From: a virus
Taxonomy: Duplodnaviria; Heunggongvirae; Uroviricota; Caudoviricetes
Reading direction: 5' to 3' (one strand)
IMG/VR virus record: IMGVR_UViG_2541047790_000010
Length of the DNA: 5,162 nucleotides
Shown: piece by piece, positions 1,821 through 5,162 of the stretch
Position numbering within the stretch: position 1 is the stretch's first letter
How the letters are laid out: each line of letters starts with the position of its first letter
Notes under the pieces: model-generated
What the model was told of the DNA's origin: nothing
What the model saw: the letters and a program-made list of their open reading frames with translations, nothing else
Database searches by the model: none
Position numbers and translations under genes: made by a program

Positions 1821-2049
1821 CGCGCATCACTCCCTTAATTGTGCTGGTTTCCTTAACAACGCCATCCAGTTGTTCGGCAATACAGGCCACTAAAGCCGCA
1901 GCGCCTTCCGCTGAAACAGTTCTCGCTCCATTCACTGTGGGCACGGACAAGACCTCTGCAAGAAACTCACTGGCCAGTGCCGCCCGTAACAGACGACTCT
2001 CCCCCTGTTCACTCAATATGCAGCCTTGCTTAAAATTCATGGATTTCAT
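1813..2049 (-). CDS. Hypothetical small protein (78 aa)
   Basis: ATG at 2047-2049 overlaps the stop of the upstream 67-aa gene (ATGA). GGAGGTG 6-7 nt upstream (revcomp of 2056-2062). Alternative in-frame ATG at 2040. No family recognised. Confidence 0.55.
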   Translation of the reverse strand: MKSMNFKQGCILSEQGESRLLRAALASEFLAEVLSVPTVNGARTVSAEGAAALVACIAEQLDGVVKETSTIKGVMRDE

Positions 2050-2249
2050 GCAACCACCTCCCCGGCTCTTTTCACAGGGATACGGGCAGCAAAGCTCAGG
2101 ATAAATTCAGTGGCAAGTTTAAGGCGTGCAGCATGCTCGCATTCTGCGATTACACGCACAGGGCGTGGACGGGCATCACGGTCTGTACGGCGGACAGCCA
2201 GAAAGACAAAGGTAAATTCAGGGTGAGATAAAGCAGGGACTGTAGCCAT
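2046..2249 (-). CDS. Small protein (67 aa), first gene after the immunity leader; candidate Icd-like (P1 immI-type) protein
   Basis: Internal in-frame ATG (2247-2249) of the 196-aa ORF 2046..2636, chosen because GGAGG (revcomp of 2258-2262) sits 8 nt upstream and the upstream part of the long ORF runs through terminator and RNA-structure sequence. Icd-like assignment is by position downstream of a C4-type RNA locus and by memory of how such islands are annotated, not by alignment. Confidence 0.5.
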   Translation of the reverse strand: MATVPALSHPEFTFVFLAVRRTDRDARPRPVRVIAECEHAARLKLATEFILSFAARIPVKRAGEVVA

Positions 2250-2257
2250 AATGGCAA

Positions 2258-2302
2258 CCTCCTTCAGATAGCGGGTAACGCTACCACCGGAGTTCCTACG
2301 CT
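2258..2302 (-). promoter_or_regulatory. Candidate antisense-RNA target site 2 (bipartite blocks) overlapping the Shine-Dalgarno of the 67-aa gene
   Basis: Minus-strand sense contains GCGTAGGAAC (plus 2292-2301) and TATCTGAAGG (plus 2261-2270). The second block runs into the SD (TATCTGAAGGAGG). Both 10-mers recur identically at 2501-2526. Confidence 0.45.
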
Positions 2303-2309
2303 CATGGGT

Positions 2310-2385
2310 GGTAGCCCAGACGGGGGTAGGAATACCGGCTCTGAAGGATACCGGCCAGCCCGAAAGCTGCCCCGCCTGGACTACC
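2310..2385 (-). ncRNA. Candidate C4/CI-type antisense immunity RNA (about 76 nt, structured)
   Basis: Minus-strand RNA 5'-GGUAGUCCAGGCGGGG...CCCCCGUCUGGGCUACC-3' forms a 16-bp closing stem (14 Watson-Crick + 2 G-U) between plus 2370-2385 and 2310-2326. Inside are a CAGC/GCUG hairpin (2356-2369) and a CCGG/CCGG hairpin (2335-2354) whose 12-nt loop carries UCCUUCAGA, followed by single-stranded UUCCUAC. These two segments are complementary to the two blocks of both target sites. Confidence 0.45.
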
Positions 2386-2469
2386 ATAATTCTGATGATG
2401 TGGCGTAAAAAATAAAAAAATACAATCAGCCACCACACCATAAATTTTAGGTGAGTCAAAGCTGCGACA

Positions 2470-2493
2470 CAAAAAAACACGCCTAGCGCGTGT
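2470..2493 (-). terminator. Intrinsic terminator-like hairpin with U7 tail inside the leader
   Basis: Minus-strand ACACGC-GCUAG-GCGUGU (6-bp stem, 5-nt loop; plus 2477-2493) followed directly by a run of 7 U (plus A-run 2471-2477, sharing one base with the stem). Lies 8 nt downstream of target site 1. Confidence 0.5.
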
Positions 2494-2500
2494 AGTATCG

Positions 2501-2526
2501 CCTTCAGATAACACGGGTTCCTACGC
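2501..2526 (-). promoter_or_regulatory. Candidate antisense-RNA target site 1 (upstream copy of the bipartite motif)
   Basis: Minus-strand sense GCGTAGGAAC (plus 2517-2526) and TATCTGAAGG (plus 2501-2510) separated by 6 nt. Same two 10-mers as site 2, where the spacing is 21 nt. Confidence 0.4.
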
Positions 2527-2555
2527 CCGGCTGCCGATTTTGCGGCAACCTTTAA

Positions 2556-2585
2556 ACTATATCCCGCGCATTCCTGGTGAGGCAA
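2556..2585 (-). promoter_or_regulatory. Candidate sigma70 promoter for the leader/immunity transcript
   Basis: Minus strand TTGCCT (plus 2580-2585), 18-nt spacer, TATAGT (plus 2556-2561). A second, weaker candidate (TTGTGT-17-TAAAAT, -10 at plus 2444-2449) lies between the leader terminator and the structured RNA. Sequence resemblance only. Confidence 0.3.
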
Positions 2586-2688
2586 GAAATTTATAACCGA
2601 AAACTGATCATTGCCTGGATTAATTAACGCTGGCATGCTTAAGCCTCTGCTTAAAAATAGTTCTTCATTTTTCCTGATGCTGTAAACG

Positions 2689-2710
2689 AGACCCGCCTCT
2701 GAGCGGGTCT
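2689..2710 (-). terminator. Stable hairpin 14 nt after the capsid-gene stop; possible terminator or RNA-stability element
   Basis: GACCCGC-CUCUGA-GCGGGUC (7 G/C-rich bp plus a flanking A-T pair; plus 2690-2709). The U-tract is poor in both orientations (plus: TTTCT; minus: CGTTTACA), so termination efficiency is uncertain. Confidence 0.35.
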
Positions 2711-2723
2711 TTCTGTCGCTAAG

Positions 2724-3728
2724 TCAATCCGCAAACGTCAGGGTGCACTCATCAACAGCCGCGTACAGTTCAGGTTCACCGAGTGCATAACCTTCATTGC
2801 GCAGGTAGGAATGCACGTATTCACTGCTTTCATCATCAAACTCAGCACGAAACCAGCGTGTTATCGCCTGAGTGTAAATATGCAGATTATCCAGCGTCGT
2901 TACTGCCAGACGCTTACCCGGCATAAACGGGGGAATAAACGCAAAGCGGCCAGCAACAGAACTTGTAGCCATCTGTGCCGCATTCACATCAGACGGGCGG
3001 TCTGCGGCATTAAATAACTTCAGGCGTTGATGTGCTGCCAGCTCTGCCCCAACCAGTACAACCAGACGAGGATCTTCACGAAACTGCTCAGCAATAAGCT
3101 CTGTAATCAGATGGTTGGCCAGAGCATCAATATTTTTCCAGGTGCCAGTCTCTCCCAGAGTGACAGGCTCAGAGATGATTTGCTTTCCGTTCCCGTAGGC
3201 TTTCGCCAGTGCATGCCAGCCAATATTGACATCCTCGCCTTTTTTATTGATTTCCGGGTTTGTAGTATTTGCAATCGACACACCGTTGAAACCGACCCGC
3301 AGCATGTCCAGCGCATATGCCTGGGCAAAAAAGCTCTCAACCGTTTTCTCAAACTCATCCGGCACGCCGGTATGGTAAATATGAGACATATCGGAATAGC
3401 TGATCCGGGCGCAGGTATCCGTCTCTGTCAGAAAGAACTCCGTACCATTGATTGCCATTTTTTTGTGGAAACGGCCACCATCCACACGTCCGGTATACAG
3501 TTCACTGGCACCAATATTGACGGCATTACCTGACACGGCGTTAACATCACGTAGGGTAATATTTTTAATAAGCCACCCGGATTCCAGAATTGAGGTACGC
3601 AGTATATTTTCAGTAGGTTCGCTTAATGCAAAGCGTCTGTTTGATTCTTCCTGATAGTTAGTGCCAGTGACGAATTTATTATGATAACGACGTGCTGCGT
3701 CCGGCCTTTCAGTTTTGAAGGCATACAT
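2724..3728 (-). CDS. Major capsid protein homologue, P2 gpN family (334 aa)
   Basis: ATG at 3726-3728 with AAGGTGA about 8 nt upstream. Translation matches my recollection of P2 gpN in several blocks: FALSEPTENIL...ESGWL, LRVGFNGV, NIGW, IDALANHLITELIAEQFREDPRLVVLVGAELAAHQ, and TLDNLHIY near the C-terminus. Similarity is judged from memory of gpN, not computed. Confidence 0.8.
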   Translation of the reverse strand: MYAFKTERPDAARRYHNKFVTGTNYQEESNRRFALSEPTENILRTSILESGWLIKNITLRDVNAVSGNAVNIGASELYTGRVDGGRFHKKMAINGTEFFLTETDTCARISYSDMSHIYHTGVPDEFEKTVESFFAQAYALDMLRVGFNGVSIANTTNPEINKKGEDVNIGWHALAKAYGNGKQIISEPVTLGETGTWKNIDALANHLITELIAEQFREDPRLVVLVGAELAAHQRLKLFNAADRPSDVNAAQMATSSVAGRFAFIPPFMPGKRLAVTTLDNLHIYTQAITRWFRAEFDDESSEYVHSYLRNEGYALGEPELYAAVDECTLTFAD

Positions 3729-3750: not shown

Positions 3751-4611
3751 TTAAGAAAAGATTTTATTTTTGTACTCAGTAACCAGATTGTATTTCATTA
3801 CATGCTCAACATAATCCCGGTCACTTACGACTGAACGTAATACATAATTATCTGCTCGATAGTACTCCCTGTAAGCCATAGCTCTTGCCATTCCACCGTT
3901 ATTTAATACATAACGATCAGTTGGAACGCTACAACGACTAATAATTTCACTCACGGAATCAGATAAAGACTTGAGTGCATCAGTAATAAATTTAATATCA
4001 CGGACAACGTCACTGTCATTAAATACAGAAATAAAATCAGCAGGGATCTGGCCGGATTGAGGAAATATATTCAGTAAACGCTTATCGATTCCCTTCCCAA
4101 TGTAGTTTCCTTCATCGGCCAGTACTCCCGGCAAAAGCTTGATCGTGCTCAATCGACTATGTTGTTCATTCAACCGGGAAACAGCCAGATGGTAATACCG
4201 TTCAGCATCCGCTCGTTCAGCATGCCCCATTTTATTCGTTTTGGCTTCAGCAATGCTACTGACGCCGTTTTTTGAGAATGTGCTTTTCCATGCAACTTCC
4301 GCATTTGTCACTTCACGCTGCCGGAAAGATAACTCTTCCTCTTCCTGACGACACAACTGGGCATAACGGCTCAGGAGCAGGTTGATCTCATTCGCCACAG
4401 TTTCCGTATCAGGTACTGTTAACCCCGTAAGTGAATACAGCTTTTCACCTTTAGCTCGCAGCTTATTCAGTGAATATATTTCAATAATACGCACAATACA
4501 GGCCGTGTCGCTATGAGTCTCTTTAAATGATCTTACTTTGTAACTATCTAACACCGACACATGTTCGTTCTTAATTGATGCCAATTTCTTCTTAAAAACA
4601 TTGTCAACCAT
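3751..4611 (-). CDS. Hypothetical protein (286 aa), orphan, A+T-rich; function unknown
   Basis: ATG at 4609-4611 with GAGGTGG 9-10 nt upstream; 17 nt after the alpA stop and 22 nt before the capsid start, so probably co-transcribed. No recognisable catalytic motif, Walker A or transmembrane stretch. Charged, probably helical middle segment (LCRQEEEELSFRQREV...). Visibly A+T-richer than the capsid and primase genes. Confidence 0.7.
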   Translation of the reverse strand: MVDNVFKKKLASIKNEHVSVLDSYKVRSFKETHSDTACIVRIIEIYSLNKLRAKGEKLYSLTGLTVPDTETVANEINLLLSRYAQLCRQEEEELSFRQREVTNAEVAWKSTFSKNGVSSIAEAKTNKMGHAERADAERYYHLAVSRLNEQHSRLSTIKLLPGVLADEGNYIGKGIDKRLLNIFPQSGQIPADFISVFNDSDVVRDIKFITDALKSLSDSVSEIISRCSVPTDRYVLNNGGMARAMAYREYYRADNYVLRSVVSDRDYVEHVMKYNLVTEYKNKIFS

Positions 4612-4987: not shown

Positions 4988-5018
4988 AATAATGGTGAAT
5001 AATAGTTAATAATGGTGA
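4988..5018. repeat. Two copies of an 11-bp direct repeat AATAATGGTGA with 20-bp periodicity; candidate operator/iteron
   Basis: Exact copies at 4988-4998 and 5008-5018 in the A+T-rich region upstream of alpA. A small inverted repeat AGACT-N5-AGTCT (4889-4903) lies nearer the alpA start, overlapping a TATAAA -10-like element (minus-strand sense; plus 4880-4885). Confidence 0.5.
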
Positions 5019-5128: not shown

Positions 5129-5162
5129 GGGGCTGGGCTGGGCTGGGCTGGGCTGGGCTGGG
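5129..5162. repeat. Pentanucleotide tandem repeat (GGGCT)n, at least 6 units, running off the window edge
   Basis: GGGGCTGGGCTGGGCTGGGCTGGGCTGGGCTGG directly visible; an abrupt change from the preceding A+T-rich sequence. Full length unknown because the window ends inside it. Confidence 0.9.

Follow-up and report, generated by a model that had tools for sequence, protein, structure and literature searches.

The stretch of DNA analysed here, referred to as the window, comprises 5,162 nucleotides, and megablast retrieved many E. coli chromosomes that contain its whole 5.2 kb with 100% identity. In E. coli strain SK1144 (NZ_AP018784), the window lies within an island adjoining a tRNA-Arg gene. 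This island carries an integrase, two sce772x genes, an ogr/delta-like gene, a DUF927/Toprim primase, two small ORFs, an 'Icd-like' CDS, a P2-family capsid homologue, a 286-aa ORF and an AlpA-type regulator. The element is a P4-like satellite prophage of E. coli: it shares a P4-type primase with phage P4, here accompanied by an integrase at a tRNA, and P4 aligned to the window with 70% nucleotide identity over 2202-2564. All genes of the window are located on the minus strand, and the same placement of every element listed in an earlier first-pass annotation of this DNA was confirmed. In the direction of transcription, a leader and a terminator are followed by a C4-type RNA, an Icd-like ORF and the primase gene, all three behind the terminator. 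All features described below lie on the minus strand.

For comparative analysis, a degenerate pattern for the two leader hairpins was run on species-representative genomes and viral contigs. It yielded 240 loci, mainly from Enterobacterales, Pseudomonas, Aeromonas, Vibrio and Halomonadaceae, which were reduced to 200 unique pattern matches. All three copies of the target word were present in 185 of these, and they were used as the working leader set. The cross-locus control for complementarity of target words amounted to 1.3%. For pairing statistics, a leader alignment of 123 sequences was used, with a shifted partner column as null. Terminators were located in each sequence with an energy-ranked detector, and folding shifts were determined with a register-free occupancy measure. 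RNAalifold, applied to 24 diverse leaders, recovered hairpins 1 and 2 and missed the terminator, owing to a register shift of the terminators in the alignment. For this reason, per-sequence detection and the 123-sequence alignment were relied upon instead.

By consensus scan, a promoter was found at 2585..2556 with the -35 hexamer TTGCCT (2580..2585) and the -10 hexamer TATAGT (2556..2561) spaced by 18 nt. Both hexamers are the same in P4, in which the homologous early promoter is PLE. Neither promoter-like sites (3 found vs 1.4 +/- 1.4 in shuffles) nor terminators (1 found vs 1.3 +/- 1.1) were more numerous than expected by chance alone, and the promoter and terminator motifs were judged real because they are positionally conserved in relatives, not by their single-sequence scores. 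Across the 185 leaders, the -10 element followed the profile T(85%)A(94%)nnnT(94%) at a single fixed offset, and TTG was kept at the -35 offset. Transcription is predicted to start at G2549, which is the first base of hairpin 1 and position 1 of the isrK model. This G was invariant (98% of the 185 leaders) and is located 7 nt past the -10 element, so that an RNA starting at the base of hairpin 1 is a geometry which the window has in common with the whole leader set. The candidate promoter named in the first-pass annotation thus proved to occupy a fixed position in the family, and its start near 2548 lies within 1 nt of the predicted one.

The RNA expected from this promoter corresponds to a known class of small RNA. 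The Rfam model isrK (RF01394) matched at 2549..2472 with 68.9 bits (cutoff 50) and over its full length (model positions 1-77 of 77). An overlapping match to c4-a1b1 (RF03163) at 2562..2510 scored 43.8 bits and stayed under the cutoff of 46.7, as does P4 itself with 44.1 bits. As in other RNAs of the isrK type, two 5' hairpins are followed by a Rho-independent terminator as 3' end. Hairpin 1 (2530..2549; 7 bp, loop CAAAAU) was established by covariation: 99.3% standard pairs were counted in the 123 leaders vs 11-43% with a shifted partner column, several pair types occurred at four positions, and RNAalifold reported compensatory changes in 4 of the 7 pairs. Hairpin 2 (2514..2529) exposes an 8-nt loop that presents the target word b1; it was assigned from the isrK and c4-a1b1 matches and from the complementarity of its loop word. 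The folding energy of the leader was unremarkable compared to shuffles (z = -0.57), and since this value is not significant, stability was not counted as evidence. Sequence identity, RNA structure and covariation of this leader module are shown by these data. The first-pass annotation had recognised neither the terminated leader as the known small RNA IsrK nor its possible role in trans. A classical leader-peptide attenuator of the trp type was also considered and rejected: when the sequence of 2549..2471 was read directly, no AUG or GUG with a preceding Shine-Dalgarno sequence was found, and the only long frame across it belongs to an unsupported 196-aa ORF.

Two target words are displayed by the leader. 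The word b1 (GUAGGAA, 2524..2518) is located in the loop of hairpin 2, and a1 (UAUCUGAAGG, 2501..2510, with the core UCUGAAGG at 2508..2501) in the single-stranded linker behind it. The a1 core is complementary to the loop word CCUUCAGA of the adjacent C4 RNA, and b1 to its word UUCCUAC, as in the a1/b1 and a'/b' pairs that define c4-a1b1. The same relation was found throughout the family. An exact reverse complement of the hairpin-2 loop 7-mer occurred downstream in 188 of the 200 pattern matches (cross-locus control, 1.3%), and an exact second copy of the loop word (b2) still further downstream in 185 of them. For a1, an exact complement of at least 8 nt was found in the C4 loop of 61% of the 185 relatives, vs 1.3% cross-locus. 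These matches were maintained in spite of a large diversity of words, with more than 25 types of b1 and about 100 a1 words. The exact three-way covariation shows that target site 1 is a genuine pairing partner of the downstream C4/CI-like RNA.

The leader ends in an intrinsic terminator at 2471..2493 (isrK model positions 57-77), which was detected by scan. It consists of a stem ACACGC/GCGUGU with the loop GCUAG (2493..2477) and a run of 7 U (2477..2471), the first of which closes the stem; the energy of the hairpin is -8.5 kcal/mol. A run of at least 5 U between the leader hairpins and C4 was present in 173 of the 185 leaders, and a predicted helix ending at most 3 nt from the U-run in 157 of them. 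An earlier and stricter scan had found a terminator in 131/200 unique pattern matches vs 1/200 in a control region. In the 123-sequence alignment, 90% of the stem pairs were standard, including a GC/CG swap. The terminator is placed between the early promoter and the antisense gene, just past the first target, which is the position of t1 in P4. To judge from its sequence, it is the homologue of P4 t1 and the 3' end of the IsrK-like RNA. The 6-bp stem plus U7 described at 2470-2493 in the first-pass annotation was therefore correct to 1 nt. Its statement that target site 1 just precedes the terminator was right in order, but the gap between a1 and the stem is 7 nt and not 8.

Behind the terminator, a spacer hairpin (2395..2441; -18 kcal/mol, z = -2.1) precedes an antisense RNA of the C4/CI type at 2304..2391, which was identified with Rfam C4 (RF01695; 81.1 bits, cutoff 45) and folds with z = -5.3 compared to shuffles. 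Its word a' (CCUUCAGA, 2347..2340) is located in a hairpin loop and b' (UUCCUAC, 2332..2326) in a junction. CI and C4 RNAs are substrates of RNase P and are cut from a longer precursor. Target site 2 (2258..2299) contains exact second copies of both site 1 words, b2 (GUAGGAA, 2299..2293) and a2 (UCUGAAGG, 2268..2261). The latter runs into the Shine-Dalgarno sequence AGGAGG of an Icd/Kil-like ORF of 67 aa (2046..2249, ATG at 2249..2247; NCBIfam NF033153, 68.1 bits over residues 12-59; PHROG 1743). This ORF is the first translated gene of the early operon. A C4 fold thus follows the leader on the same strand, and a second set of a and b words covers an Icd/Kil-type start, which is the composition of a C4/CI module. 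In a review on P1, c4 RNA is described to block translation by antisense pairing with target sequences.

Taken together, the stretch flagged in the first-pass annotation is probably the early (PLE-type) promoter with the IsrK/seqA-type leader and leaky terminator of a C4/CI antisense-RNA immunity module. The layout is that of the known P4-type leader and terminator, and the module, real but ordinary, is already catalogued as an IsrK/seqA leader upstream of a C4/CI RNA. IsrK and C4 were described as structural homologues of P4 seqA and CI RNA by Barquist et al. 2013, and the same homology was stated by Hershko-Shalev et al. 2016, who also reported IsrK to be 77 nt long and to have a Rho-independent terminator of its own as 3' end, which is partly read through.

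The closest known arrangement is that of P4, in which the hexamers TTGCCT and TATAGT are followed by the same two hairpins with target words at the same positions. A 6-bp hairpin with U-tract is found there at the same distance and aligns column for column with the window terminator; as here, it is followed by a C4-type RNA and, over the RBS of a Kil/Icd-like ORF, by a second target site. The words themselves differ, being GUGAGAA and UUCACAGG in P4 vs GUAGGAA and UCUGAAGG in the window, with antisense RNA and site 2 changed to match. As the element has its own specificity words, it should be hetero-immune to P4, and cross-immunity between the two appears unlikely. The spacer between terminator and C4 is shorter here than in P4. 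With Rfam, matches to isrK, c4-a1b1 and C4 were all obtained in the same order in P4 and phiKO2. In the P1-like RCS47 and in Stx phage GER2, isrK and C4 scored above their cutoffs in this order, while c4-a1b1 reached a weak 22.3 bits in RCS47 and had no match in GER2.

The anti-immunity locus of N15, phiKO2 and PY54 contains a small processed RNA upstream of icd-antA-antB. These phages showed 80-83% identity to the window over the leader and C4 segments. In phiKO2, isrK scored 66.8 bits and C4 71.8 bits, and the 3' end of the isrK match coincides with a putative terminator annotated in the phiKO2 record. Unlike the window, phiKO2 has no spacer hairpin between terminator and C4, and anti-repressor genes take the place of replication genes downstream. 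The immI region of P1/P7 (RF01695, RF03163) has the same C4 fold with a' in a hairpin loop and b' in a junction, and two sets of a/b targets, the second of which lies over the start of an icd-type gene, as here; the P1-like RCS47 also has an isrK-type leader with terminator. P1, however, controls icd and ant, and the host element is a plasmid prophage, not a satellite. IsrK of Gifsy-1 (RF01394) and the window leader both have their own promoter and a Rho-independent terminator, followed by a C4-like RNA and a small ORF. In the lambdoid prophage Gifsy-1, the downstream anti-repressor cascade orf45-anrP-isrJ acts on antQ, whereas an Icd-like gene and satellite replication genes are located downstream in this element. 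The documented activity of Gifsy-1 IsrK is activation in trans and not repression. Constitutive C4-like RNA did not suppress the IsrK-mediated growth arrest in Gifsy-1, and the arrest was more pronounced, which speaks there against a simple role as termination factor.

Two other readings of the locus were weighed against the placement in a C4/CI module. The flagged stretch could be the N-terminal two thirds of the 196-aa ORF at 2636..2046, in which case promoter and terminator would be incidental look-alikes. This frame is open throughout, is annotated by PGAP (RefSeq Icd-like protein) and matches Pfam Phage_ASH (PF10554) over residues 26-141 with 111.7 bits. However, the Ash match spans exactly the leader, terminator, C4 and site 2, that is, the region with RNA-type covariation and strong Rfam scores, and the Icd-like domain is confined to residues 141-188, past the Shine-Dalgarno sequence and the ATG at 2249. 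About half of the relatives keep the frame uninterrupted through the RNA region, but stops break it in 81 of 171, and the distance from leader to start codon is not frame-held (48 distinct distances, distributed 21/17/10 by remainder mod 3). For the equivalent 'cI/ash' ORF of P4 only an old unnamed annotation exists, and in later literature the P4 immunity factor is a short processed RNA. A coding function of the stretch is thus considered improbable in the extreme.

The second of these readings concerns TAAAAT at 2449..2444, which had been listed in the first-pass annotation as a second candidate -10 behind the terminator. The hexamer is indeed present, matches TATAAT in 5 of 6 positions and is sited between terminator and C4. 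As part of a promoter it would drive the C4-like RNA separately from the leader, and the terminator could then fully insulate both units. Some 5-of-6 match to a -10 element was found in the terminator-C4 interval of 43/173 relatives, but a promoter-like pair in only 2/173. No usable -35 accompanies TAAAAT: the best one, TTGTGT at 16 nt, agrees in 3 of 6 positions, and the consensus scan of the window reported no promoter there. The hexamer is also absent from the aligned position in P4 and phiKO2 and was judged non-functional as a family feature. In Gifsy-1, deletion of the isrK promoter led to loss of the C4-like RNA, which counts against a separate C4 promoter, as does the processing of CI and C4 by RNase P out of a longer precursor. 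A second promoter at this site is accordingly held to be highly unlikely. As C4 and the genes lie behind the terminator, with a promoter-like site in between in so few relatives, the terminator has to be leaky.

In P4, t1 is said to be a Rho-independent terminator between PLE and cI, and efficient termination at t1 reportedly needs CI RNA and seqA. CI RNA is also reported to enhance termination at t1 in vitro without host factors. Termination at t1 is said to serve mainly the autoregulation of CI, with the main immunity block exerted by terminators further downstream. How an antisense RNA raises intrinsic termination was, to our knowledge, left open in the work on P4. In Hershko-Shalev et al. 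2016, P4 CI RNA is stated to cause premature termination by pairing with seqA and seqC.

The effect of antisense pairing on the terminator was approximated by masking the target words in an equilibrium folding model, which ignores kinetics. In the window, masking of a1 raised the predicted occupancy of the terminator from 0.86 to 0.97, and masking of both a1 and b1 to 0.99. In P4, masking of the target shifted the predicted value from 0.92 to 0.99. The median of the family (134 leaders) rose from 0.74 to 0.98, vs 0.77 with a control mask of equal length. The rise is apparently caused by a small helix in which the 3' end of a1 and its flank (GGCG[C]) pair with [G]CGCC in the terminator 5' arm; in the model, this helix competes with the terminator. 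A helix of at least 4 bp between these two segments was possible in 129/133 leaders and occurred in covarying forms such as GGCGG/CCGCC, GACGC/GCGUC and GAGAGC/GCUCUC. In the window it is present in the weakest form of the family, GGCG/CGCU, with 4 bp including one G-U, compared to GGCG/CGCC as the commonest form; the size of any regulation in this element is therefore uncertain. In leaders of the Pseudomonas type, the competing helix stands out clearly as an alternative hairpin, which the model gives as the default fold; in one such leader the predicted switch on masking was large, from 0.42 to 0.95-0.99. Relatives of the Pseudomonas and Halomonadaceae types follow the scheme GGCGC-N4-GCGCC-N10-16-GGCGC-U7, and the read-through fold is their predicted default. 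According to the model, such an antiterminator design is explicit in these relatives and degenerate in the E. coli element. An overlap of a1 with a helix that competes against the terminator was not found described in the literature searched.

Another potential antiterminator, formed by CGUGU past hairpin 2 and ACACG in the 5' arm of the terminator, appeared in a suboptimal fold (-24.6 vs -24.9 kcal/mol). It was rejected for lack of covariation between these two segments in the relatives. In the minimum-energy fold of a 310-nt read-through RNA, a further outer helix was seen to bracket the terminator, with GUGUCGC (2464..2470) as 3' arm and GCGAUAC (2501..2495) as 5' arm. This helix could form only after read-through. 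Its pairing in the family was 57% vs 33-41% when shifted, and its own energy was -9.1 vs -7.4 kcal/mol cross-locus. The indication is weak, and the outer helix was not counted in the mechanism.

On this basis, the following course of events is proposed. Transcription would begin at about G2549, and the nascent RNA would fold into two hairpins, with b1 (GUAGGAA) shown in the loop and a1 (UCUGAAGG) in the linker. At 7 nt past a1, the short, weak hairpin (-8.5 kcal/mol) with the U-tract would follow. Part of the transcripts would end here and yield an IsrK-like RNA of about 78 nt. The remaining transcripts would read through and carry the C4-like RNA, which would be excised by processing. Next on the read-through RNA, ahead of the primase gene, is the second a/b site, which overlaps the RBS of the Icd-like gene. 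Pairing of a'/b' of the mature C4 with site 2 would block translation and cause downstream termination, as the main immunity step. C4 would also pair with site 1 on the nascent leader; the weak competing helix (GGCG with CGCU) would thereby be removed and the terminator favoured. In this way C4 would limit its own synthesis and add a first layer of repression.

The interpretation of the first-pass annotation, an immunity-controlled attenuator acting as in P4, is partly supported by these data. The layout is homologous to PLE, seqA and terminator of P4, for which antisense-dependent termination is described in the literature. The dependence on the antisense RNA, however, is drawn from this homology and from the small folding shift of 0.86 to 0.99, and termination at 2471-2477 would depend on C4 in this element by analogy and model. 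In this family, the replication genes are expected to be blocked mainly further downstream, at site 2 over the RBS of the Icd-like gene, and not at this terminator. Tentatively, the leader may be regarded as an attenuator that senses an RNA in trans by means of a built-in antiterminator, with pairing of a C4-type RNA switching read-through to termination; for the window, this proposal is possible yet doubtful.

Conversely, the terminator might be constitutive and not tuned by C4, and the IsrK-like RNA of about 78 nt might be a trans-acting decoy or anti-antisense. By binding to the C4 region, its a1 and b1 would then lift the repression of the Icd-like and replication genes, which would make this RNA a positive regulator. 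There is precedent in Gifsy-1, where IsrK, 77 nt long and ended by its own Rho-independent terminator, raised translation of the downstream gene more than 100-fold when provided in trans. The point mutations G28A and G31A in the hairpin-2 loop abolished the IsrK effect, and their partners are located in the downstream C4-like segment. In the window, the isrK model is matched over its full length, formation of the terminator in the absence of C4 is predicted at 86%, and both target words stay exposed in the predicted fold of the terminated RNA. On the other hand, the P4 literature assigns a repressive, termination-promoting role to the pairing of seqA and CI. In addition, a1 overlaps the terminator-competing helix family-wide, which a pure decoy would not need. 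A constitutive terminator with a trans-acting decoy was accordingly rated unlikely; the decoy and attenuator roles are nevertheless compatible and inseparable by sequence. If both the attenuator proposal and a decoy activity hold, one 80-nt leader would have two opposing outputs and could provide a tunable threshold for satellite or prophage induction.

The value of the results is mostly one of annotation and classification, in that the stretch is placed in the RNA immunity switch known from P4, P1/P7, N15 and Gifsy-1; only the connection of a1 with the terminator, as seen across the family, might be worth experimental work. The data set of 185 leaders, with its many b1 and a1 words and the recurrent a1-terminator helix, is ready for comparative tests of how antisense RNA raises intrinsic termination and may serve beyond the window. 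The RefSeq 'Icd-like' CDS and the matching Pfam Ash family run across RNA genes.

Leaders of the isrK type are also present in the P1-like phage RCS47 (locus L245, 922-1000, minus strand, 60.2 bits) and in the Stx phage GER2 (locus L246, 909-984, minus strand, 61.7 bits). In both phages the leader ends in a hairpin with a U-tract and lies upstream of the phage's own C4 antisense RNA; the leader-terminator unit therefore appears to be general to C4-type modules and not specific to P4. Among the retrieved leader relatives L008-L244, Pseudomonas-/Halomonadaceae-type leaders (e.g. L019, L035, L041, L052 and L057) have the arrangement a1-GGCGC-N4-GCGCC-N10-16-GGCGC-U7 in the region after the pattern match, where a1 is the target word of the C4 RNA and overlaps the first GG of GGCGC. 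The middle arm GCGCC is able to pair with either flank. By folding prediction, the terminator of these leaders would be open in the default fold and closed when a1 is masked, which was used as a proxy for bound C4 RNA; for L057, predicted terminator occupancy rose from 0.15 to 0.93 on masking.

Directly after a1 in the window, GCGAUAC (2495-2501, minus strand) can pair with GUGUCGC (2464-2470) directly after the U-tract. The resulting helix encloses the terminator hairpin and is possible only in read-through RNA. Such an outer helix is common among P4-type leaders, and its positions were paired in 57% of cases across the family, versus 33-41% with a shifted partner, a complementarity that weakly suggests a family-wide feature. 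Between terminator and C4, an 11-bp spacer hairpin with a U-rich loop was located at 2395-2441 (minus strand, -18 kcal/mol, z = -2.1). Its 5' arm opens with UUAUGGUG, resembling the 5' end of C4, AUUAUGGUA. In P4 the corresponding spacer is longer and different, and phiKO2 lacks one.

Leader, terminator, C4 RNA and site 2 are all spanned by a 196-aa CDS (2046-2636, minus strand), annotated by RefSeq/PGAP as 'host cell division inhibitor Icd-like protein'. Its Pfam match to Phage_ASH (PF10554), over residues 26-141, coincides exactly with the RNA region, and only residues 141-188, downstream of the ATG at 2249, carry the Icd-like domain. The annotation appears to extend the CDS too far, and the Pfam Ash family seems to consist of conserved RNA genes read as protein.

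The window also encodes, on the minus strand, a homologue of the P2-family major capsid protein (2724-3728) and a 286-aa ORF (3751-4611), together at 8629-10516 of the full locus around the island (L004). The capsid homologue matched PF05125 with 225.8 bits (Pfam) and TIGR01551 with 204.6 bits, under the equivalog cutoff of 219.65; the 286-aa ORF had no match in Pfam, PHROG or NCBIfam. Neither sid nor psu is annotated in the island. Because P4 is described as being without capsid genes, a capsid homologue in a P4-like satellite may represent a different route to redirecting helper capsids. Directly after the capsid-homologue gene, some 100 nt ahead of the early promoter, lies a 9-bp GC-rich hairpin of the GACCCGCCU/AGGCGGGUC type (2686-2710, minus strand, -17.5 kcal/mol, z = -2.7), which has no clear U-tract on the minus strand and was not called by the terminator scan.

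Upstream of the gene for the AlpA-type regulator, the AT-rich stretch contains three tandem copies of AATAATGGTG (4988-5018, 80% matches), which could form a binding-site array for a regulator. Between this gene and chromosomal dsdC, near the presumed island end, a perfect GGGCT pentamer array comprises 6.6 copies at the window edge (5130-5162) and approximately 12 copies in the full locus (11035-11097).
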